IMG/VR virus record: IMGVR_UViG_2541047879_000004
Span: 1 to 52,210 of that record
Source: a virus
Taxonomy: Duplodnaviria; Heunggongvirae; Uroviricota; Caudoviricetes
Direction: 5' to 3' (one strand)
Length of the DNA stretch: 52,210 nt
Part shown: piece by piece, positions 4,363-18,526 of the stretch
How positions within the stretch are numbered: position 1 is the first letter of the stretch
Layout: each line of letters opens with the position of its first letter
Program-made: the position numbers and the translations under genes
The notes under the pieces: model-generated
The model's database searches: none
What the model was told of the DNA's origin: nothing
The model's input: only the letters and a program-made list of their open reading frames with translations

Positions 4363-4930
4363 TATCGCGTCCTCAACAATGAATTTTGTGATGCGGTGCC
4401 TGGTGCCTCCAGGTGACGTTAACCAGTTAACAATTAACGCCGGATACAGAGAATCCACCCATAACACTGTTTTTGGTTTTAACTGTTCCGCGTGCGCTCA
4501 GCCGCATTCACCACATCACAAAATTCACTTTAAAAAGGGCGGCATAGCAGTCACGGAGTAAAACTGATACCGCCAAACGTCACCAGAAAATTGATAACAG
4601 AGGGCGTTGCAGCGGGGTTGTCACTTAAGCGTATGGTCAACCTGACAACCCGGTGTCCTCAACGGGGGAAGGAATAACCCCGCCATACTTACCGCCGCGC
4701 CATTTCGCGGATTGCCACAACCGGAAGCGCACGATCGACGAAAATTTAACGACAGGCTATCTATGAACCAGCTACCTCGCCGTGCGCTTTCGCGTTATGG
4801 TCTGACTTTTCAGGGAAATATCCTTTCAGTAAACTGTCAGTGCCGGATGCTCACCCGTGTCCGGCGCACGCACTCCACCTCACCCGTGGAGAACTCCTTA
4901 ATTACCAACCTTAGCTTCGTTGGTTAGCTA

Positions 4931-5149
4931 TTAACGCGGGTATGTAATCATTCTGGCAATGCTTAATGCCGCTGCTTTTTCCAGATTGGTGATATCCTGC
5001 TCCAGAGCGGACAGATTTTCAGCCTGCTTGGCCCTGGCTTCATTGGCCCATTTCAGATCCTGCGCTGCATTAATTTTCTGGTGCATCCACTCATAAAGTT
5101 CATCATCGGTATAGTCTGGCGCGATGATGACGGGTTCTCGTTTCTGCAT
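4931..5149 (-). CDS. Small hypothetical early protein (72 aa)
   Basis: ORF with gagg RBS, tandem with neighbouring small leftward genes. Confidence 0.5.
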   Translation of the reverse strand: MQKREPVIIAPDYTDDELYEWMHQKINAAQDLKWANEARAKQAENLSALEQDITNLEKAAALSIARMITYPR

Positions 5150-5178
5150 ACTGATTCCTCGCGGTACTGCTTCGCTTA

Positions 5179-5307
5179 TCAGCCGTTAGATTTTGCCGAG
5201 CTGGAAAGCGCCTGTTTAAACTCACTGAAGCTGAGAGCTTCTTCGCCTTCGGCAAGGCCTTCGAAGTATTCTTCGTAAGCCTTTTCCATGATTGTGTCGA
5301 AATCCAT
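5179..5307 (-). CDS. Small acidic hypothetical protein (42 aa, MDFDTIMEKAYEEYFEG...)
   Basis: Short ORF below track cutoff, gagtga RBS, start abuts stop of upstream gene. Confidence 0.35.
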   Translation of the reverse strand: MDFDTIMEKAYEEYFEGLAEGEEALSFSEFKQALSSSAKSNG

Positions 5308-5308
5308 A

Positions 5309-5464
5309 TCACTCACCTGAGTTTCTTTCCAGCCAGCGACGGGCACCATTTTCGGTTTTAAACGTTTTGCTTTTGGTATGCGTCATCGCGGTGAATGTGC
5401 CGTCCTGGTTGGGAAACACGCCGTACACCAGAGATTCGTTGTTGCCAAGATCGATAGTATCCAT
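5309..5464 (-). CDS. Small hypothetical early protein (51 aa, MDTIDLGNNESLVYGVF...)
   Basis: aagggg/gagg RBS before internal ATG of track ORF 5309..5545. Confidence 0.5.
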   Translation of the reverse strand: MDTIDLGNNESLVYGVFPNQDGTFTAMTHTKSKTFKTENGARRWLERNSGE

Positions 5465-5670
5465 GTTGACCTCATTTCCCCTTAACGCCGGGGTAGCGGA
5501 ACAAAAACCTGCTGCATAGTTATTAAAGTTGAACCCTGCCGTCATGTTCTTACGCCTCGGGCTGGCTACTTAACCCCTGACCACTGCCTGGTAACTCGAA
5601 GTATTGCCCTGCATTCTGTGGGGTGGGGTGAGGGAATGAATGAAGTTTAGAAAAATGAACTTTTCAGGTC

Positions 5671-5694
5671 AATGTTTTTTTATCAAAACATTTT
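5671..5694. promoter_or_regulatory. Palindromic operator-like site (AATGTTTTTTTATCAAAACATT) in the leftward early control region
   Basis: Inverted repeat containing GTTTTGAT-type half-site also present in the cI-cro intergenic region. Confidence 0.4.
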
Positions 5695-5756
5695 AAGCAG
5701 GCAGCTGTTAAGCCATCACCACGATGGCATACAGTTAATCAAATAGATGAGGTTGG

Positions 5757-6395
5757 TTAAATATCTTGTTGAATTTTAAAGCATACGCCCAATATGCAAG
5801 ATAGATCATCCAGCATAATTGAAGGGTAGCGAGGATTCGTGGGGACTAAAAGAATATCCGGCCCTTCTATCTCCAGTTTACGAATGACAGGTGTTGTGGT
5901 CCCTTTGGGTAAGGCAAGGACAATATTTCCTGGTTGTACGGTTCGATCGGGATCAACAAAAACTGTTGAACCATTTGGGATGGAAACCCCCCCACCAGAT
6001 GTTGACATACTGTCACTCTCTAGAACAACTGCAAAGGTATTGGCCGGGATTTCTCCGACAAGCTGCACACAAGAGGTTATTGAGGAATTTTTCATATAAT
6101 CACTCCAGCTTGCTGCCTGCTGAAGTGATAGTAGCGGAACCGTTTTTATCGGCGGTAAAGATAGATCAAGCGAATCACCTGTATTTAACTCTCCTCCATT
6201 AAGAAGCCAATTTTCGTTTACTTTCAATATCTTTGCCAGTGAACTTATGTAACGCGAGGACGGCGCTCCTCCACCGTTCATCCATTGACTTACGGAGCCT
6301 TTTGATGCGCCAGTGGCATTGACAAGGTCTTTGCCTTTCAGGTTTAGCGCATGCATACGTTGGGTTATGCGTTCAGATATTGTTTGCTTGCTCAT
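5757..6395 (-). CDS. cI: CI-like phage repressor (HTH N-domain + S24 LexA-like autopeptidase C-domain)
   Basis: N-terminal HTH (GASKGSVSQWMNG), C-terminal S24-like region; divergent from cro. Confidence 0.85.
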   Translation of the reverse strand: MSKQTISERITQRMHALNLKGKDLVNATGASKGSVSQWMNGGGAPSSRYISSLAKILKVNENWLLNGGELNTGDSLDLSLPPIKTVPLLSLQQAASWSDYMKNSSITSCVQLVGEIPANTFAVVLESDSMSTSGGGVSIPNGSTVFVDPDRTVQPGNIVLALPKGTTTPVIRKLEIEGPDILLVPTNPRYPSIMLDDLSCILGVCFKIQQDI

Positions 6396-6486
6396 GTTTT
6401 GATTTTAAAACACAGATGGTTTTGTTTCTTGACTTTCTTTGGTTTTGATTATTAAACTTTTGGCGTTCAGTTTTATGGAGCGACTC
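6396..6486. promoter_or_regulatory. Divergent immunity promoter/operator region (PRM/PR-like)
   Basis: Two copies of GTTTTGATT(T/A)T(T/A)AAAC (6396-6411, 6441-6457); TTGACT -35-like hexamer at 6429-6434 upstream of cro. Confidence 0.5.
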
Positions 6487-6729
6487 ATGAAAAAATCAGA
6501 AGTATTAGGCTATTTTGGCGGAGTTGTTAAAACAGCCGCAGCTCTAGGAACGTCAAAAACCACAGTCAGCATGTGGGGGGAAGAGGTTCCGTGGAAATGG
6601 GCGTTGCTAATTCAGGCAGTCACTGCCGGGGCGCTCAAATATGAGTTACACATACCGACGGTTGTCATTCCCGGTTCTGATCATAATCCGCCTTCTAACC
6701 AAGGGGGGATTCATGAAAATCAAGCATGA
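6487..6729 (+). CDS. cro: Cro-like HTH regulator (YdaS-like)
   Basis: 80-aa ORF from MKKSEV, ggag RBS, HTH-like GTSKTTVSMW, divergent from cI. Confidence 0.8.
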   Translation: MKKSEVLGYFGGVVKTAAALGTSKTTVSMWGEEVPWKWALLIQAVTAGALKYELHIPTVVIPGSDHNPPSNQGGIHENQA

Positions 6730-7138
6730 ACACATCCGCATGGCGATGAATGCCTGGGCGCGTCCTGATGGCGAAAAAGTTCCAGCAGCTGGAATAACCC
6801 AGGCTTATTTTGAGTTGGGTATGACGTTTCCTGAACTGTATGACGACAGCCATCCGGAAGCCTTGGCTCGCAATACCCAGAAAATTTTCCGCTGGGTAGA
6901 GAAAGACACCCCTGATGCAGTTGAAAAAATTCAGGCGTTGTTACCAGCGATCGAAAAGGCAATGCCACCTTTGCTGGTGGCCAGAATGCGCAGCCACAGT
7001 TCAGCTTATTTTCGGGAGCTGGTGGAGACGCGGGAGCGACTGGTGAGAGACGCTGATGATTTTGTCGCAGTGGCAATCGCCGGTTTCAATCAGATGAACC
7101 GTGGTGGCCCGGCAGGAAATGCTGTGGCAGTACATTGA
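6713..7138 (+). CDS. YdaT-like protein (cII-position regulator)
   Basis: MKIKHEHIRMAMNAW... 141 aa immediately after cro with aagggggg RBS; resembles Rac prophage YdaT (recalled from memory). Confidence 0.65.
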   Translation: MKIKHEHIRMAMNAWARPDGEKVPAAGITQAYFELGMTFPELYDDSHPEALARNTQKIFRWVEKDTPDAVEKIQALLPAIEKAMPPLLVARMRSHSSAYFRELVETRERLVRDADDFVAVAIAGFNQMNRGGPAGNAVAVH

Positions 7139-7209
7139 CTGACAATAGCCATATCGAATCGCTTCCGGCAACTCGTGAGTAAAAAGATTCGGTATCAGAA
7201 GAGGTGAGT

Positions 7210-8226
7210 ATGGCTAACGCCTGGCTCAGATTATGGCATGACATGCCAAATGACCCTAAGTGGCGAACAATTGCCAGGGTGTCAGGGCAGCCAATTGCAA
7301 CAGTGATGGCAGTGTATATCCACCTCCTGGTGAGCGCGTCACGAAATGTCACGCGAGGTCACATTGATGTCACGACAGAAGATTTGGCAAGTGCGCTCGA
7401 CGTGACAGAAGAGGTAATTGATTCAATTTTGCAGACGATGCAGGGGCGGGTACTTGATGGTGATTTAATCACTGGATGGGAAAAACGCCAGGTGCTTAAA
7501 GAGGACAACGGCAATATTTCGCAAACCGCAAAATCTCCGGCAGAGCGCAAGAGGGCGCAGCGTGAGAGGGAAAGAAAGCGGGAACAAAATGGCGATTGTC
7601 ACGGCGCGTCACGAAATGTCACGCACATGTCACGACAAGTCACGACAGATAAAGATACAGATACAGAATTAAACCCCACACATAACGCGCGCATGCGCGA
7701 GAGTGCTCCAACCGGTGAGTCGCATGGTGCGCCGTTGCAGACAGCCGAACCTGAATACCTGGACGGCCTGAGCGAACCGATCGGGAAATTTTCGATGACT
7801 ACTGTCTGGCAGCCGTCGTCGGATTTTCGACAACGGGCAGCAGTGTGGGGTATGGCTCTGCCTGAGCCGGAATTTACACCTGCAGAGCTTGCCGCATTCC
7901 GGGATTACTGGATGGCGGAGGGGAAGGTTTTCACGCAGGTTCAGTGGGAGCAGAAATTTGCCCGCCACGTGCAGCACGTCAGGGCACAGGTAAAACCAGT
8001 CAGCAAGGGGGTAAGCCATGCAGCATCAGGTGGCACGGCATCACGGGCAGTTCAGGAAATCCGGGCAGCACGCGAACAGTGGGAACGTGACAACGGATTT
8101 ATCAGCAACGGAAACGGCCTGGAAGCTGTGGGAGCTTATGGGGGAGGTGTATTCGAACCGCTGGACCCAGAAGAACGGGGCCGCACCTTCGAAGCTCTGG
8201 ATTGCCCAGATTGGCGCGATGACTGA
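7210..8226 (+). CDS. Putative replication initiator / replisome organiser (O-like)
   Basis: Position after cro/cII-like genes; gene contains two arrays of GTCACG direct repeats; gaggtga RBS. Confidence 0.55.
   Translation: MANAWLRLWHDMPNDPKWRTIARVSGQPIATVMAVYIHLLVSASRNVTRGHIDVTTEDLASALDVTEEVIDSILQTMQGRVLDGDLITGWEKRQVLKEDNGNISQTAKSPAERKRAQRERERKREQNGDCHGASRNVTHMSRQVTTDKDTDTELNPTHNARMRESAPTGESHGAPLQTAEPEYLDGLSEPIGKFSMTTVWQPSSDFRQRAAVWGMALPEPEFTPAELAAFRDYWMAEGKVFTQVQWEQKFARHVQHVRAQVKPVSKGVSHAASGGTASRAVQEIRAAREQWERDNGFISNGNGLEAVGAYGGGVFEPLDPEERGRTFEALDCPDWRDD
7338..7378. repeat. Iteron array 1: four tandem ~10-bp GTCAC(G/A)-initiated repeats
   Basis: GTCACGAAAT GTCACGCGAG GTCACATTGAT GTCACGACAG. 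Confidence 0.75.
7598..7680. repeat. Iteron array 2: five tandem GTCACG repeats followed by AT-rich tract (candidate origin)
   Basis: GTCACGGCGC GTCACGAAAT GTCACGCACAT GTCACGACAA GTCACGACAG then ATAAAGATACAGATACAGAATTAAA. Confidence 0.75.
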
Positions 8227-8680
8227 ACAGCAAATCCGGCTGGTCTGCCGTCAGTGCATGGACCGCTGCCGGGCGGGTGAAACGTGGCCCCCGGACCTGG
8301 CTGAGTTTGTTGCACTGATTTCGGAGAGTGGGGCAAATCCATTTGGTCTTACGGTGGATGCAGTGATGGAAGAGTACCGGCGCTGGCGCAATGAATCCTG
8401 GCGATACGACGGGAGTGATAAATACCCGTGGCCACAGCCTGTGCTGTACCACATCTGCCTCGAAATGCGTACCAGAGGGATTGAGCGCCAGATGACGCAG
8501 GGTGAGTTAAAACGACTTGCAGAACGGCAACTGACGAAATGGGCAAAGCATGTTGGTAACGGGATGAGTGTTCCGCCAGTGCGACGACAACTGGAAGGGG
8601 CGAAACACCCGCAAGGGCCAACGCCAATTGAACGGCTGAAACAGGAATACGAACGCCGGAAGGCAGCTGGTTTTATTTGA
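8219..8680 (+). CDS. Hypothetical replication-module protein (P-position)
   Basis: 154-aa ORF from MTEQQIRL overlapping upstream stop; no Walker motif seen. Confidence 0.4.
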   Translation: MTEQQIRLVCRQCMDRCRAGETWPPDLAEFVALISESGANPFGLTVDAVMEEYRRWRNESWRYDGSDKYPWPQPVLYHICLEMRTRGIERQMTQGELKRLAERQLTKWAKHVGNGMSVPPVRRQLEGAKHPQGPTPIERLKQEYERRKAAGFI

Positions 8681-8713
8681 ATCTGAGAAACGATTTTGTC
8701 GGAGGAAATTTTA

Positions 8714-9439
8714 ATGGAAACCGTATTTGACGCACTGAAAGCACTGAAAAGAGCCTCTTCACAGGTAGTGGCGGCCCGCCTTGGAATCAGCCGTAAAGAT
8801 GCGGTCAACGAACTGTGGAAACTGAAGCGCCGCGGTGAAGCGGATAACAAGGGTTCGATGTGGTGGCTGATTCAGGCTGGTGAAAGTGAACCGGTGTCAC
8901 CGGTACCGAAAGTGACAGCGCAAATGCTGACTGAGGCGATTGAACAACATGGCCCACAAACGGCGGATGAGCTGGCACTGATGTTCGGGATTACCTCCCG
9001 CCGGGCGAATTCATCGCTGGCCATGGCAATCAGCAAAGGGCGTCTGATTCGCGTGAATCAGGGCGGTAAATTTCGTTACTGCATACCGGGCGCTGATTTA
9101 CCGGCAGAGCCGGAAGCTGCATCCGTAGCGGAAACCGATGGTAAAGCCTTTCCTCAGCCAGCAGGTGTTGCGTTACCAGTTCGGGAAGCAGAAACACAGG
9201 AAGAAATAAAAACGGAAAGTGTGGCGGTCACAGTGCAGTCACAGCCGTCGTTCACCAGAAAACATCCGGATGGTCTGATTTTACCATCGCTGCATGTGGC
9301 TAACCGTGAGCTGCGCCGGGCAAAAGGTCAGGTTCAGAAGTGGGAGCGAGTCTGCGCCGCGCTGCGGGAGCTGAATAAACACCGGGATATTTTCAGTTCG
9401 ATTGCTGATATTCCGGTTCATTCACCGACAACAAAGTGA
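8714..9439 (+). CDS. Hypothetical protein with two winged-helix-like segments
   Basis: ggagga [15 protein letters not shown]... Confidence 0.5.
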
Positions 9440-9454
9440 TCTCCGGAGGTGCTT

Positions 9455-9877
9455 ATGACAAGAGCATTTACACCAGAAGAGCGGGAAAAAATTAAGGGGC
9501 TGATCGTGGAATTCGTACGCCTTAACGGACGAGGCACGATTCGGCAGTTATCGGATGAAATTGGTGTCAGTCATGCGTCTGTCGGTCGTTTATGCATGGA
9601 GCTGGCCGCCAGTGGTGATGTTTACAATTCCGGTTACGGAGTATTCCCGTCTGAACAGGCTCGTAAAGACTGGCAAAATGCCCGCAAAAAATTATCGAGG
9701 GCAAAGCTGAAGAAACCGGTTGTGGTTGATCCGGACCTTATCTGGTCGTTACCTGACGGAGAAATACGTCGCTACGACAGTCGCCTAAACATAATCTGTC
9801 GCGAGTGCCGGAAGAGTGAAGCTATGCAGCGTGTACTGGCTTTCTATCAGGGTAATTTTCAGGAGGCGGTACTGTGA
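9455..9877 (+). CDS. Hypothetical protein
   Basis: ccggagg RBS; 141 aa. Confidence 0.5.
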   Translation: MTRAFTPEEREKIKGLIVEFVRLNGRGTIRQLSDEIGVSHASVGRLCMELAASGDVYNSGYGVFPSEQARKDWQNARKKLSRAKLKKPVVVDPDLIWSLPDGEIRRYDSRLNIICRECRKSEAMQRVLAFYQGNFQEAVL

Positions 9878-9934
9878 GTGAAATTAGCTATCAGGCTTCA
9901 ATTACCGCTGGCATTCGCATCAAAGGAGAGGAGC

Positions 9935-10291
9935 ATGGAAATAAAACCAGAGGATGAGTTAAGCAATATCGTTTTATTTCCGGTAAAAGAGGATGACCCT
10001 CGTAATCAGGTTAATTTTCTTTATGAGCCATCGGAAAGACCATATTGTCATCACGCCTCTGTCCGGGTTGACGAAAAAGAGCGTCAGGTCCGCTGTAAAA
10101 TCTGCGGTGCAGTTGTGGAGCCATTTGACTGGATGCTCTCTGTGGCGAAAAGAGAAACCAGACTGGCAGATGATGTAAGGCTCTTGCGTCAGGAGGAGCG
10201 GGAAAGGCGAAAAAATATAGAAAAGCTAATTCAGATTGAGCGTAACGCGAAAGCGCGGATACGCAGGGCGACAAAATCCAGAACTGAATAA
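9935..10291 (+). CDS. Hypothetical Cys/His zinc-ribbon-like protein with basic coiled C-terminus
   Basis: aaaggagag RBS; CHH...CKICG motif. Confidence 0.5.
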   Translation: MEIKPEDELSNIVLFPVKEDDPRNQVNFLYEPSERPYCHHASVRVDEKERQVRCKICGAVVEPFDWMLSVAKRETRLADDVRLLRQEERERRKNIEKLIQIERNAKARIRRATKSRTE

Positions 10292-10384
10292 TTAAATTTA
10301 GCTCTGTTAAAAATTTAATCCTTAACCGGAGGGATTTCTGCACCTTCAGAACATCAGGAGGCCGCCCGAAAGGGCGGTAGTTAA

Positions 10385-10567
10385 ATGCGAAAGTTTAAAA
10401 TAATTATTGAAACGGGAATAGCCGGTGGAGATTTCGAGGATGAATTCGAAGTGGATGATGATGCGACGCCTGATGAAATACATGACGAAGCAAAAGATAT
10501 TTTCTTTAACTACTGCAATTACTCATATCACGAAATAAAAGACGAAGAGGAAGAACAAAATGGCTGA
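10385..10567 (+). CDS. Small acidic hypothetical protein
   Basis: 60-aa ORF, translationally coupled to next gene. Confidence 0.4.
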   Translation: MRKFKIIIETGIAGGDFEDEFEVDDDATPDEIHDEAKDIFFNYCNYSYHEIKDEEEEQNG

Positions 10568-14317: not shown

Positions 14318-14677
14318 ATGCGTATAGAGTTTGTTTTGCCTTACCCGCCGACGGTGAACACCTACTGGCGTCGTCGTGGCAGCACATATTTTGTATCAAA
14401 AGCCGGTGAGCGTTATCGCCGGGATGTGGCACTTATTGTCCGCCAGCAGCGGCTGAAATTAAACCTGTCCGGAAGGCTGGCAATAAAAATTACTGCAGAG
14501 CCACCGGATAAGCGCCGTCGTGACCTGGACAATATTCTGAAAGCACCACTGGATGCACTGACACATGCGGGGTTGCTTATCGACGACGAGCAGTTTGATG
14601 AAATCAATATTGTGCGCGGACTGCCTGTTCCTGGTGGTCGGTTGGGGATAAAAATCACAGAGCTGGAGTGCGCATGA
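14318..14677 (+). CDS. rusA: Holliday junction resolvase RusA
   Basis: 119 aa; PDKRRRDLDNILKAPLDALTHAGLLIDDEQ matches RusA catalytic Asp cluster. Confidence 0.85.
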   Translation: MRIEFVLPYPPTVNTYWRRRGSTYFVSKAGERYRRDVALIVRQQRLKLNLSGRLAIKITAEPPDKRRRDLDNILKAPLDALTHAGLLIDDEQFDEINIVRGLPVPGGRLGIKITELECA

Positions 14678-15363
14678 ATAACCAGTATTTACAGTTTGTT
14701 CGTGAGCAGCTCATTATCGCCACCGCCGATTTGAGTGGGGCAACAAAAGGTCAGCTTGAAGCCTGGCAGGAGAATGCCATGTTTGATACAGGGCGTTACA
14801 GACGTAAAAAAATCCGGTACCGCGATAAGGTCACTGGAAAAATGGTAACGCTGGATAATCCACCGATCCCGGGAAAGCAATCGCTGGCGAAAGGTTCATC
14901 AATTGCCCTAGTCAGTCCGGTTGAGTTTTCGACATCATCATGGCGACGCGCCGTTCTGTCTCTTGAAGAGCATCAGAAGGCGTGGGTACTGTGGGTATAC
15001 AGTGAAAATCCGAGTTGGGATTATCAGGTGGTCATTGCGAAATGGGCGTGGGATAAGTTTCAGGTGCATTTTGGTACCAGAAAAATTACAGGGAAAACGC
15101 TTGAGCGTCTGAAGAAATTAATCTGGCTGGCGGCGCAGGATGTCAGGGGGAGGATTACTGGGTGTGACGTCTACCAGCGACAGGAACTTGCCAGACTGTG
15201 TGGAGTTAAGTCAGACAACTGGAGCCACAATTATGCGCACTACTGGCGTGATATGTGCGACATTTTTAAGAACCTCGACAACGAATCTTTGATTTATACC
15301 ATGAAAACAAGATCGCAACAAAAAGCGACCTTTTCGCGGCGGGTTATTGCAAAAGTCAATTAA
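14674..15363 (+). CDS. Late-gene antitermination protein Q-like
   Basis: Position immediately before late/lysis region and after rusA; ~230 aa; start overlaps rusA stop. Confidence 0.6.
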   Translation: MNNQYLQFVREQLIIATADLSGATKGQLEAWQENAMFDTGRYRRKKIRYRDKVTGKMVTLDNPPIPGKQSLAKGSSIALVSPVEFSTSSWRRAVLSLEEHQKAWVLWVYSENPSWDYQVVIAKWAWDKFQVHFGTRKITGKTLERLKKLIWLAAQDVRGRITGCDVYQRQELARLCGVKSDNWSHNYAHYWRDMCDIFKNLDNESLIYTMKTRSQQKATFSRRVIAKVN

Positions 15364-15635
15364 ATCGCGTACATTTCGTGTAAATCTGATATTTTGCTGA
15401 TTTTGTACACGATGGCAAACTAAACAAAGCCTGCTGCTGAGCGGGCTATCTTTTGTCGTAAGTTGAGCGAAAGACCATCGATTTTACCTTGCTAAAACTA
15501 TTCTGCTATTGCCGAGTTACCCTTTAGGTAATACACTCATCTTATAAAAGAAAGTGGTTGTTAGCCACATAGGTTAGGATGTGCGCATACTTTGTTTGTG
15601 TGCTTTTTGTGTTTTATCTGTTAACGGAGGGGAGC

Positions 15636-15863
15636 ATGCCGAAATATCTAACACTTGCCGCTCGCGCGATCCTCTCACCTGAGAAGATCATCAAAAAAAT
15701 TGCAGATATAGCTTCCATGTGTGATGGAAAAGAAGCTAAGCATGAAAGTGACAAGTTTTTCATTGATAGTAATGGTTCGATGGTTTTGAATCGCAACAAC
15801 GCTGATGTGCAAAAGGCTTTCGCAGCCAATATTAAGGGATTGAGTACTAAGAAGAAGGGTTAG
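15636..15863 (+). CDS. Hypothetical small protein (75 aa), cargo
   Basis: ggagggga RBS; AT-rich codon usage. Confidence 0.5.
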   Translation: MPKYLTLAARAILSPEKIIKKIADIASMCDGKEAKHESDKFFIDSNGSMVLNRNNADVQKAFAANIKGLSTKKKG

Positions 15864-15869
15864 TCTTCT

Positions 15870-16667
15870 ATGTGGGCTGCGCTGATTGTTATTGTTTTAG
15901 TTTGTGGTTATCACTATACCAACTGCCATTTGCCGTCACGATACCGTCAAAGCAAAGCGATCGGTTGGAATGCATACTTTGATGTTGCACTGAAAGGTGG
16001 TGAGTTTCTCATAAGTGGTATTCTTATCGCTGCCTTATTGGTTGTTGTTCTGTACGCTGGAATGTCACTTTGGAACATTCCAGCGTACTTGTTTGGTTGG
16101 TACGCTCCCTTTACTTTCGCCCATGACTTTCTCAAAATGCGAGTGTTTGGGTTGAGCATGTTCCCTGCTATGTCGATAGCTTTCACTATTATTGTAAGTA
16201 TCGGGAAGGCATCAGAGGCAACCAAAAACCATAAAGACCCACAAAAGCGCAAGGCTATTTTTGAAGAAATTGCGGCTCATAGTGCCGTGGAAAATATCCT
16301 TCTTGAATCAGTTGAGCGTGGATTGTTATTGTTGGTTACACTGAAGTCTCGCAAGGTCTATGTGGGGATGATTGATGAGGCACGTTTCAATCAGTTAGAT
16401 ACTCACACATTGGTGCTAATCCCTTTTATGTCCGGGTACAGAGATAAAGATACTCTGACTTTTTGTGTTGAGCATAATTATGTGGACTACTACCTTAGTC
16501 AGGGTATCACATTAACTTCTGAGCCATTGTCAGTTTATCAGTTTAGGCATGTGTTGCCCTTCGATCAGATCGAATCTTTTTCGCTGTTTAATGTTGAAAC
16601 ATTCGAGACTTTCAAGGCAGGTATTGAAGGGAAGAAGGCCACTGAAGTACAGAATCAAACAAGTTAA
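15870..16667 (+). CDS. Hypothetical multi-pass membrane protein (265 aa) with ~140-aa soluble C-terminal domain, cargo
   Basis: Several hydrophobic segments in N-terminal half; followed by own terminator. Confidence 0.55.
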   Translation: MWAALIVIVLVCGYHYTNCHLPSRYRQSKAIGWNAYFDVALKGGEFLISGILIAALLVVVLYAGMSLWNIPAYLFGWYAPFTFAHDFLKMRVFGLSMFPAMSIAFTIIVSIGKASEATKNHKDPQKRKAIFEEIAAHSAVENILLESVERGLLLLVTLKSRKVYVGMIDEARFNQLDTHTLVLIPFMSGYRDKDTLTFCVEHNYVDYYLSQGITLTSEPLSVYQFRHVLPFDQIESFSLFNVETFETFKAGIEGKKATEVQNQTS

Positions 16668-16687
16668 GGTTGTTACCTCATTAATTA

Positions 16688-16712
16688 AACCCGCCATTGA
16701 GCGGGTTTTTTG
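16688..16712 (+). terminator. Rho-independent terminator
   Basis: CCCGCcattgaGCGGG then TTTTTT. Confidence 0.75.
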
Positions 16713-16829
16713 ATGCCCGAAGTGCGGTACATTAAACGCGCTGGTAGTTATTAATATCGGTCTTTCAGCTTGCTGGCTTTTTCGACAAGAGTTATTGGTA
16801 TGTCACGTTAACCAGAAAAGGGAAAAGGC

Positions 16830-17027
16830 ATGCTAAAACAGCAGGATATGACCGAAACTGCCAGAGTGGTGTTTAATGAATTAAGCGTCACCGAACCGGC
16901 GACCGTCGGGGAAATTGCGCAGAATACTTACCTTTCACGCGAACGTTGCCAGTTAATACTGACCCAGCTTGTTATGGCGGGTCTGGCAGATTATCAGTTC
17001 GGTTGTTACAGACGCCTTCCTCAGTGA
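16830..17027 (+). CDS. Small hypothetical protein (65 aa)
   Basis: RBS aaaaggg..aagg; followed by terminator. Confidence 0.4.
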   Translation: MLKQQDMTETARVVFNELSVTEPATVGEIAQNTYLSRERCQLILTQLVMAGLADYQFGCYRRLPQ

Positions 17028-17038
17028 AGGCTTTTTTA
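17014..17038 (+). terminator. Rho-independent terminator
   Basis: GCCTTCctcagtGAAGGC then TTTTTT. Confidence 0.7.
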
Positions 17039-17177: not shown

Positions 17178-18227
17178 ATGGCTAATACTGTAAAAATATC
17201 CAGTTGTGAGTTAATCAACGCTGATTGCCTGGAATTTATCCAGACCTTACCGGAAAACTCTGTCGATCTTATAGTCACAGACCCGCCATACTTTAAAGTG
17301 AAACCCGAGGGCTGGGATAACCAGTGGAAGGGCGACGATGATTACCTGAAGTGGCTGGACCAGTGTCTGGCGCAGTTCTGGCGGGTGCTGAAACCTGTCG
17401 GAAGTCTTTACCTGTTCTGTGGTCATCGCCTGGCATCTGATATCGAAATCATGATGCGTGAACGCTTCAGTGTGCTGAACCATATTATCTGGGCGAAGCC
17501 GTCCGGACGCTGGAACGGATGCAACAAGGAAAGCCTGCGGGCGTATTTCCCCGCCACAGAGCGCATTCTGTTCGCGGAACATTATCAGGGGCCGTATCGT
17601 CCGAAAGATGCCGGGTATACGGCGAAGGGCAGTGCACTGAAACAGCATGTGATGGCCCCGCTGATTTCTTACTTTCGTGATGCGCGCGCGGCCCTGGGGA
17701 TAACGGCAAAACAGATTGCAGATGCCACAGGAAAGAAAAACATGGTGTCGCACTGGTTCAGTGCCAGTCAGTGGCAGCTACCGAACGAAAGCGATTATCT
17801 GAAATTACAGTCGCTGTTTGCCCGGGTGGCAGAAGAGAAACATCAGCGCGGTGAACTGGAAAAGCCCCACCACCAGCTGGTGGATACGTATACGTCACTG
17901 AACCGGCAGTATGTGGAGCTGCAGAGTGAATATAAGCATCTGCGGCGGTATTTTGGTGTGACGGCGCAGGTGCCGTACACGGATGTGTGGACACATAAAC
18001 CGGTGCAGTTCTATCCAGGGAAACATCCGTGCGAAAAACCGGCAGAAATGCTGCAGCAGATAATCAGCGCAAGCAGTCGTCCGGGAGACCTGGTTGCAGA
18101 TTTTTTTATGGGCTCAGGCTCAACGGTAAAAGCTGCACTGGCGCTCGGGCGTCGTGCGATTGGCGTTGAACTGGAGACCGGACGTTTTGAGCAGACAGTC
18201 AGGGAAGTTCAGGATTTAATCGTTTGA
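17178..18227 (+). CDS. DNA N6-adenine (or N4-cytosine) methyltransferase, beta-class (motif IV before motif I)
   Basis: N-terminal DPPYF motif, C-terminal FFMGSGST SAM-binding motif. Confidence 0.8.
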   Translation: MANTVKISSCELINADCLEFIQTLPENSVDLIVTDPPYFKVKPEGWDNQWKGDDDYLKWLDQCLAQFWRVLKPVGSLYLFCGHRLASDIEIMMRERFSVLNHIIWAKPSGRWNGCNKESLRAYFPATERILFAEHYQGPYRPKDAGYTAKGSALKQHVMAPLISYFRDARAALGITAKQIADATGKKNMVSHWFSASQWQLPNESDYLKLQSLFARVAEEKHQRGELEKPHHQLVDTYTSLNRQYVELQSEYKHLRRYFGVTAQVPYTDVWTHKPVQFYPGKHPCEKPAEMLQQIISASSRPGDLVADFFMGSGSTVKAALALGRRAIGVELETGRFEQTVREVQDLIV

Positions 18228-18276: not shown

Positions 18277-18352
18277 GGCCCTTTAGCTCAGTGGTGAGAG
18301 CGAGCGACTCATAATCGCCAGGTCGCTGGTTCAAATCCAGCAAGGGCCACCA
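18277..18352 (+). tRNA. tRNA with CAU anticodon (Met or Ile2)
   Basis: Cloverleaf: acceptor GGCCCTT/AAGGGCC, anticodon loop cuCAUaa, TTCAAAT T-loop, CCA end. Confidence 0.8.
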
Positions 18353-18359
18353 TCACATA

Positions 18360-18436
18360 CCGCCATTAGCTCATCAGGAAAGAGCGCCAGCCTTCGAAGC
18401 TGGTTGCGCGGGGTTCAAGTCCCCGATGGCGGTCCA
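18360..18436 (+). tRNA. tRNA-Arg (anticodon UCG)
   Basis: Acceptor CCGCCAT/ATGGCGG, anticodon loop cuUCGaa, TTCAAGT T-loop, CCA end. Confidence 0.75.
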
Positions 18437-18449
18437 TTATCTGCATCAT

Positions 18450-18526
18450 GCGTTGTTAGCTCAGCCGGACAGAGCAATTGCCTTCTAAGCAATCGGTCAC
18501 TGGTTCGAATCCAGTACAACGCGCCA
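18450..18526 (+). tRNA. tRNA-Arg (anticodon UCU)
   Basis: Acceptor GCGTTGT/ACAACGC, anticodon loop cuUCUaa, TTCGAAT T-loop, CCA end. Confidence 0.8.

Follow-up and report, generated by a model that had tools for sequence, protein, structure and literature searches.

The subject of this study is a two-gene cassette directly downstream of the Q antiterminator gene in the IMG/VR virus record IMGVR_UViG_2541047879_000004 (positions 1 to 52,210; this whole stretch of 52,210 nucleotides is called the window), which is a lambdoid Escherichia coli prophage. As judged from sequence comparison, the cassette is prophage cargo in the form of a self-contained two-gene module that is horizontally mobile; it encodes a small protein of 75 amino acids (aa) and a 265-aa membrane protein with a predicted Sm-like domain. 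We propose that the pair represents a membrane-acting phage-exclusion or abortive-infection system and assign a probability of roughly 45% to this reading. It is put forward because the insertion is discrete, the two genes are strictly paired, they occupy cargo slots on unrelated mobile elements and they have conflict-type neighbours; furthermore, transmembrane (TM) helices combined with a small cytoplasmic beta-barrel match known abortive-infection membrane effectors in layout, and conservation lies on the cytoplasmic side. The features are the following (positions of the window):

14668–15363, + strand: Q antiterminator gene (PF06323, 1.5e-83)
15424–16705, + strand: inserted cassette ('moron') of 1.28 kb, delimited by the homology break against an empty-site prophage
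15428–15447, + strand: upstream intrinsic-terminator-like hairpin (tR'-like) between Q/pR' and the cassette, from a terminator scan; 8-bp stem followed by ATCTTTTGT
15626–15634, + strand: Shine-Dalgarno (SD) sequence GGAGGGGAG of the small gene, read from the sequence
15636–15863, + strand: gene of the small partner, 75 aa, from open reading frame (ORF) and translation; RefSeq WP_001127354.1
15870–16667, + strand: large gene, 265 aa, from the ORF; RefSeq WP_000263274.1
15873–16235, + strand: predicted membrane region of the large protein, aa 2–122, from AlphaFold2 (AF2) secondary structure and Kyte-Doolittle hydropathy
16284–16589, + strand: predicted Sm/LSm/Hfq-like domain of the large protein, aa 139–240, from AF2; N-terminal helix and five strands, of which strands 4 and 5 are separated by an insertion
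16687–16712, + strand: downstream intrinsic terminator, stem AAACCCGC / GCGGGTTT followed by a T-run, from folding

An earlier note on this DNA, made from the letters alone, had described an AT-rich two-gene cargo directly after Q. This description holds: Q ends at 15363, the GC content drops to 0.40–0.43 over 15300–16800 compared to 0.47–0.59 in the flanks, and two co-directional ORFs follow on the + strand at 15579–15863 (94 aa from the first ATG) and 15870–16667. The status as accessory genes, which the note had assumed, is borne out by sister prophages: the cassette is a discrete cargo insertion for which both an empty site and alternative cargo are found. In the near-identical prophage of E. 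coli MSB1_4I (L166) homology to the window ends at 15423 and restarts at 16706, so that only 214 bp and a single terminator separate Q from the gene of a 65-aa winged-helix protein. In E. coli MFDS1019527 (L165, NZ_CP169309.1) the slot after Q carries a different gene (2427–3140 of L165), coding for a multi-TM protein of 237 aa (WP_000999910.1) whose C-terminus is short and beta-rich and which belongs to no Pfam family. Among 5,426 complete E. coli genomes, about 2,430 have the flanks of the cassette, namely Q on one side and the winged-helix gene with an N6/N4 DNA methyltransferase gene on the other; 14 of the 5,426 have the exact cassette, in identical context each time and with both genes annotated as 'hypothetical protein'. 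A megablast search of the phage collection gave no match.

The cassette is bracketed by two tR'-type terminators and lies downstream of the late promoter region. The upstream hairpin folds with a free energy (dG) of −14.2 kcal/mol (z = −2.4). For the downstream terminator, which had been noted before as strong, the stem 16687–16708 together with the U-run yields −17.9 kcal/mol (z = −3.8), and 0 of 200 shuffled sequences fold equally well. Copies of the 16687–16712 terminator are found on both sides of the alternative cargo in L165 and also ahead of the cassette in another lambdoid prophage (L096). Because the same sequence takes these positions, we assign the downstream terminator to the tR' region of the prophage, at the boundary of the cassette, and the pattern suggests that cargo is exchanged through recombination at the terminator.

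With respect to the genes themselves, the earlier description is correct except for its start coordinate: position 15579 is the first ATG of the 94-aa ORF, whereas we place the functional start at the ATG at 15636, because an SD sequence lies just upstream, RefSeq holds the 75-aa form and the 19-residue extension is absent from homologues. An SD is conserved for both genes, and the note had been right to give them their own ribosome-binding sites. Among homologous cassettes this AGGAGG-type SD is the only conserved upstream element, the remaining upstream DNA having diverged. A comparison with the 97%-identical copy of E. coli strain 41 gave dN/dS ratios of 0.06 for the small and 0.10 for the large gene; against homologues of 75–80% identity synonymous sites are saturated for both genes, with a pN near 0.2. 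By these codon comparisons, purifying selection acts on both genes.

The two genes occur as a strict pair. At 153 of 162 loci with a homologue of the large protein (about 95%), a same-strand ORF of at least 40 aa stops near the point where the large gene begins; most of these ORFs are 55–95 aa long and not more than about 15 bp away from the large gene, and a few calls are artefacts of disrupted loci. One single profile takes in 123 of the 153, and the remaining ones, including the acidobacterial and Balneolaceae ORFs, carry the core hydrophobic-x-[VI]-x-x-x-G-x-hydrophobic-x-[VIL]-[DN] followed by an amphipathic helix. When all neighbours within six genes were clustered for 62 non-redundant loci, the small gene was the only conserved neighbour of the large gene and no third conserved gene was seen across the family. 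In the reverse direction, small-protein homologues from Pectobacterium and Klebsiella each have a gene of 259–262 aa located 7 bp downstream, recognized by its length and position. The gap between the two genes is 6 bp in the window and ranges from −4 to +15 bp across the family with ATGA-type overlaps at several loci, a spacing that suggests translational coupling. Pairwise identities of the small and the large proteins correlate with r = 0.80, the small one diverging faster. Taken from these gene-order and divergence data, small and large gene form an obligate two-gene unit. A check of neighbourhood conservation across prophages had been proposed in the earlier note; the small gene is kept beside the large gene, and the pair recurs in prophages. 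At about 10 of the 162 loci (L009, L016, L024, L033, L037, L039, L040, L050, L060 and L152; Xenorhabdus, Photorhabdus, Symbiopectobacterium and others) the large gene is truncated or frameshifted and the adjacent small ORF is mostly intact, a pattern compatible with the decay of a costly or toxic gene.

The large protein was modelled with AF2 on the basis of 48 homologues, which resulted in a predicted local distance difference test score (pLDDT) of 91.4 and a predicted template-modelling score (pTM) of 0.76. The model contains helices at residues 2–19, 33–68 and 97–122, two linker helices, a beta domain at 153–240 preceded by a helix at 139–150, and a C-terminal helix. A Kyte-Doolittle scan displays two clear TM segments and a borderline first one, and the protein is accordingly predicted to reside in the inner membrane with 2–3 N-terminal TM helices. 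Stretches rich in lysine and arginine at 20–44 and after residue 113 suggest, via the positive-inside rule, a topology with the N-terminus outside and the C-terminus inside, which would place the beta domain in the cytoplasm. Hydropathy and model both confirm the earlier description of a multi-pass membrane protein whose C-terminal domain is soluble; the small soluble protein beside it had likewise been read correctly.

In the C-terminal domain of this model an N-terminal alpha-helix is followed by five strongly bent antiparallel beta-strands, the arrangement by which the Sm fold is recognized, and at the fold level the domain is predicted to belong to the Sm/LSm/Hfq superfamily. A structure search in BFVD gave weak matches to Sm-like viral proteins. 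On the sequence level the domain differs from the Sm, LSm and Hfq families: the large protein has no Pfam LSM or Hfq match at E ≤ 1, its domain is fused to a membrane anchor and bears an insertion of about 25 residues between strands 4 and 5, and the motifs LKSRKVYxG and SGYRDKD, which are invariant in the family, are its own. The invariant residues of the domain comprise L158, K159, S160, R161, K162, V163, Y164 and G166 as well as S188, G189, Y190, R191, K193, D194 and Y204, among which K159, R161, K162, Y164, Y190, R191 and K193 make up a basic and aromatic cluster. In a ranking over 65 non-redundant sequences the Sm core (151–200) is the most conserved part, followed by the first TM helix and the first cytoplasmic loop (G13 and, in the 20–45 loop, G32, Y36 and G43), whereas the predicted periplasmic loop 66–96 is the least conserved. 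Because of this distribution we regard the constraint as acting on the cytoplasmic side.

The small protein is basic (isoelectric point 9.7) and has neither a TM segment nor a signal peptide. Its AF2 model shows helices at 2–13 and 15–29, a low-confidence linker, a beta-hairpin at 41–51 and a helix at 56–70, with a pLDDT of 80–85 in the core and 69.6 for the whole chain. The conserved core motif is KFFIDxxGSxxLNRxNxxVQKAF. A direct homology search with this protein yielded 13 clusters only.

The family of the large protein is extensive. A profile search of 1.84 billion representatives found 2,759 clusters (50% identity) at E ≤ 1e-3, a number that falls to 1,728 at E ≤ 1e-10; nearly all of the best 150 are 230–340 aa long, without extra domains or fusions. 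The family spans Proteobacteria, Acidobacteriota and Balneolaceae, and at the species level carriers were found among many Enterobacterales, in Pseudomonas, Shewanella, Psychrobacter, Photobacterium and Legionella, in Neisseriales and Burkholderiales, in Acidobacteriota (Bryobacteraceae) and in Balneolaceae. In IMG/VR, 236 further viral contigs encode a homologue, and among deposited phages protein-level matches occur in SEN4/SEN5 and in a P2-like Klebsiella phage, annotated as hypothetical only. On plasmids the family is rare (6 of 72,556 records, all large replicons).

The positions of the pair in other genomes bear on its possible role. In lambdoid prophages it directly follows a Q gene of the PF06323 family, as in the window, or of the unrelated PF03589 family (L096); at a further locus (L111) the order is DUF968, a Q-like gene, a cassette of 47% identity and then the methyltransferase. 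In P2-like prophages the pair is located between the replication gene A (gpA) and the portal gene Q. For example, in E. coli CFT073 the order is gpA, a hypothetical gene, DinI, small gene, large gene, a Hypoth_Ymh/TIGR02391 protein and the portal; this variant (WP_001292590 and WP_000529102; NC_004431, 918325–919311), to which a P2-type member of the family had led, is only about 37% identical to the window copy. The window copy itself lies after the antiterminator gene of a lambdoid prophage and not in the gpA–portal interval, which its P2-type homologues do occupy. This interval, also referred to as the tin/old slot, has been shown experimentally to be a hotspot with anti-phage systems that carries old, tin and others (Rousset et al. 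2022, Cell Host Microbe, PMC9122126), and the CFT073 locus is included in Table S5A of that study. In its Table S5B we found the family as system #43 (93 occurrences, listed as '2 TM', with the motifs TLKSRKVYIG and ISGYRDKD) and as system #57 (75 occurrences, with the motif ISGYRDKD and a 78-aa small partner of the VVGRGAIIT type). Judged by these motifs, both belong to the same protein family as the window copy, which has therefore been catalogued before, unnamed and without characterization; the paper supplies neither a family name nor a fold. The earlier note had called the system undescribed, which is right insofar as it has no name and is not in the tables of tested systems, but its homologues have been on record since 2022.

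Further copies are found in elements with a primase/DUF927 gene, SSB and ProQ, and on chromosomes beside integrases; at two loci (L041 and L043) toxin-antitoxin (TA)-like pairs, judged from sequence, are adjacent. Other conflict-type neighbours are a reverse transcriptase with an XRE regulator (L076), an HNH nuclease (L066) and a caspase-family protein (L080). In two Klebsiella-type elements (L172, 5524–5835, and L173, 5598–5918) the pair is directly followed by a gene of the PF14373 family (Imm_superinfect, T4 Imm-like), and by this gene content the slot in these elements is likewise a cargo or exclusion region. In a metagenome-assembled genome (MAG) of Acidobacteriaceae (L053, 3921–7478) a 1,186-aa protein composed of CHAT protease, NB-ARC/AAA_16 and TPR regions is encoded on the same strand 21 bp upstream of the pair; this neighbour, similar to NOD-like receptors (NLR) and Avs proteins, hints at a possible three-gene variant.

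Searches for known families gave little. Neither protein has a match at E ≤ 1 in Pfam, NCBIfam or PADLOC (PADLOC-DB 2.0.0), and PHROGs yields families of unknown function only, the large protein belonging to phrog_3630 at 3e-59; the earlier statement that no family is recognizable was thus accurate. Searches of PDB sequences with the large protein, with the single sequence as well as with a profile, found no relatives (0 profile matches at E ≤ 10), and the weak PDB matches of the small protein (E 0.36–1.2, CRABP2 and others) were rejected as noise. Family accessions, the PHROG identifier and the motif strings were not found in the searchable texts of papers, and literature on Sm-like proteins in connection with anti-phage functions or abortive infection led to papers on WYL domains and on LSm proteins of Tevenvirinae, not to the family of this pair.

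Several known systems resemble the pair in part. Cap15 (S-2TM-beta), an effector of the anti-phage system that signals through cyclic oligonucleotides (CBASS), has a similar layout, in which N-terminal TM helices are joined to a compact beta-rich domain in the cytoplasm; the beta domain of Cap15 binds the signal and drives membrane disruption. An assignment to CBASS or Pycsar-type effectors was rejected, as no cyclase is among the top neighbour families and the small protein is the only conserved neighbour. MscS channels, which are heptamers, also combine three TM helices with a subsequent cytoplasmic Sm-like beta domain. The large protein is not an MscS homologue, given that it has no MS_channel signature and no overall match to the TM3-beta-alpha/beta fold, and the likeness is restricted to the layout. 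Lambda RexAB, T4 Imm and P22 SieA/SieB are comparable as prophage-borne cargo acting at the inner membrane, but they have no sequence similarity to the window pair and a different domain content. WYL domains are Sm-like/SH3 beta-barrel ligand sensors of defence systems (PMC4012209). However, they score below true Sm and Hfq proteins, the window protein has no WYL match in Pfam, and WYL proteins are soluble transcription regulators whereas the large protein is a membrane protein. We know of no solved or characterized counterpart in which TM helices and an Sm-like domain share one chain and an obligate mini-protein is the partner.

How could such a pair exclude phages? In the proposed mechanism the large protein would be anchored in the inner membrane and expose its conserved Sm-like domain, which is basic and rich in aromatic residues, on the cytoplasmic side. 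Sm domains are organized in rings of 6 or 7 members via pairing of strand 4 with strand 5. By analogy, the Sm-like domain of the large protein probably assembles into a ring of this size: oligomerization and bundling of the TM helices are probable because strands 4 and 5 are both present and conserved, and such a ring would gather 12–21 TM helices. The small protein probably acts as a regulator that docks on the large protein from the cytoplasmic side; it could be antitoxin-like, a sensor or an adaptor, and the Sm sheet could be extended or capped by its beta-hairpin. Most likely as in other TM-effector systems, a cue from the infecting phage, either nucleic acid or a phage protein, would be sensed by the Sm domain or by the small partner and would switch the membrane part to a permeabilizing state, so that the inner membrane would be damaged and phage development halted. 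The more specific idea that membrane-anchored Sm rings constitute a new class of immune effectors, in which the small beta-hairpin partner either restrains or arms the Sm-like domain and recognition of phage nucleic acid or protein triggers ring assembly into a membrane pore, we consider doubtful.

The earlier note had also raised the pair as a candidate defence or exclusion system. Residence in the P2 hotspot and the conflict-type neighbours speak for this proposal, but a number of observations weigh against it. Besides the PADLOC miss, the family is not among the supplementary data of DefensePredictor and Vassallo et al., two large defence screens in E. coli, and its motifs do not appear in the tables of tested systems of Rousset et al. 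2022 (PMC9122126). The P2 hotspot also carries partition systems and the cytolethal distending toxin CDT (PMC9122126), so that the location merely raises the prior. In the window, a consensus scan of 15448–15635, from the upstream terminator to the small gene, detected no sigma-70-like promoter, and with the SD being all that is kept upstream among homologous cassettes, no promoter was seen that travels with them. Because of these two observations, expression of the cassette in this prophage may be Q-dependent and late, which would be ill-suited to a defence expressed in the lysogen. The acidobacterial context finally points in another direction. In MAGs of Bryobacteraceae/Bryobacterales (L055, L057 and L064, at about 4600–10500) the order is KsgA on the opposite strand, a GT2 glycosyltransferase, the small and the large gene; with such ordinary cellular neighbours the pair looks vertically inherited there rather than island-like, in contrast to Enterobacterales. 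The upstream glycosyltransferase is a lineage-specific double GT2 protein of 770–787 aa with a coiled-coil N-terminus, and a pair of anti-sigma and extracytoplasmic function (ECF) sigma factor genes follows the small and large genes in L055 and also in L053.

Among the alternatives, a late function for the carrying phage survives best, although we hold it to be unlikely. In this case the genes would be transcribed by Q-antiterminated read-through from pR' and act at the membrane, either by excluding superinfection during lytic growth or by tuning the timing of lysis. The Shiga toxin genes (stx) of Stx phages are a precedent, as they are cargo of the same post-Q slot and transcribed in this way. 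The position of the cassette between two tR'-like terminators directly after Q and the negative promoter scan fit this explanation, and so does the fact that other lambdoid prophages have homologous cassettes ahead of the same methyltransferase, just downstream of Q genes from two unrelated families. On the other hand, the same pair is present in the tin/old slot of P2-like prophages, far from the lysis genes, and genes in this slot are expressed from the prophage according to established P2 biology. It is furthermore found at chromosomal sites without phage genes in Pseudomonas, Shewanella, Psychrobacter and Acidobacteriota. We also rejected a holin/antiholin identity, since neither protein matches such a family in Pfam and linkage to lysis genes is not conserved at the P2-like and non-phage loci.

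The pair could also be an addiction module in which a membrane toxin and a small antitoxin stabilize the carrier element without a dedicated anti-phage role, which we regard as quite improbable. Its gene layout is that of type II TA systems, with a small upstream gene tightly coupled to a larger downstream gene; the faster evolution of the small partner, the occurrence as a stand-alone module on many different mobile elements and the loci at which the small gene outlasts a truncated large gene agree with this explanation too. Against it, no ribbon-helix-helix (RHH), helix-turn-helix (HTH), AbrB or Phd DNA-binding domain was detected in the small protein by Pfam, in the AF2 model of moderate confidence or among PDB sequences, neither an antitoxin fold nor a TA match in Pfam or PADLOC was recognized, and the scarcity on plasmids would be unusual for an addiction module. 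A TA nature would moreover be compatible with defence, as many TA pairs act in abortive infection.

To a similarly low degree we credit a cellular function outside of conflict, for example as a membrane-tethered Sm-like binder of RNA or another ligand or as a channel-associated module, which mobile elements would carry as a fitness factor. The family is large and old, and its architecture is uniform at 240–290 aa, without fusions among the best 150; the synteny in Bryobacteraceae with KsgA, the GT2 glycosyltransferase and the sigma/anti-sigma pair would be in line with such a role. The Sm fold is classically RNA-binding, and the combination of TM helices with an Sm-like beta domain in MscS fits as well. 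The exclusion reading draws instead on the cargo slots of unrelated mobile elements and on the conflict-type neighbours. Finally, that AT-rich non-coding DNA contains these ORFs by mere chance, for which nothing more than the lack of database annotation could be cited, is refuted to the point of negligible probability by the dN/dS ratios, thousands of homologues, a confident AF2 model and conserved SDs.

The surroundings of the cassette in the window contain further genes of note. Downstream of the cargo slot, the 65-aa winged-helix protein (16830–17027; weak TrmB/MarR-like matches, phrog_331), whose gene end is overlapped by a terminator-like hairpin at 17014–17031, and the N6/N4 DNA methyltransferase (17178–18227) form a conserved backbone pair. 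They are followed at 18277–18526 by three phage-borne tRNA genes for Met (CAT), Arg (TCG) and Arg (TCT); sister prophages carry Ile/Arg/Arg, Thr/Gly or Arg/Gly at the same position. Between the tRNA block and a nanS-like gene, on the opposite (−) strand, 18817–19152 codes for a 111-aa IraM-like anti-adapter (NCBIfam PRK09919, 4.7e-48; phrog_4407) within an AT-rich island with a GC content of 0.31–0.39, which by its composition and position looks like a second moron of the prophage. IraM proteins block RssB and thereby stabilize RpoS. Just upstream of the lysis genes lies a 622-aa ORF (19398–21266), which we take to resemble the 9-O-acetyl-sialic-acid esterases of the prophage NanS/YjhS type that Stx phages encode downstream of stx.

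Should the pair serve in defence or exclusion, a compact module of 1.1 kb with wide taxonomic spread would be added to the known ones, and two unnamed cargo types of the P2 hotspot catalogue would gain a function. It would also mean that the variable lambdoid post-Q slot, the stx slot of Stx phages, draws on the same exchangeable cargo as the P2 tin/old hotspot. If membrane Sm rings are in fact immune effectors, an RNA-chaperone fold would serve as the sensor of a two-gene defence system represented by about 2,760 clusters in several phyla. Even if the pair has no part in defence, a membrane-tethered Sm-fold protein that occurs from E. coli to Acidobacteriota would be a piece of unstudied cell biology.

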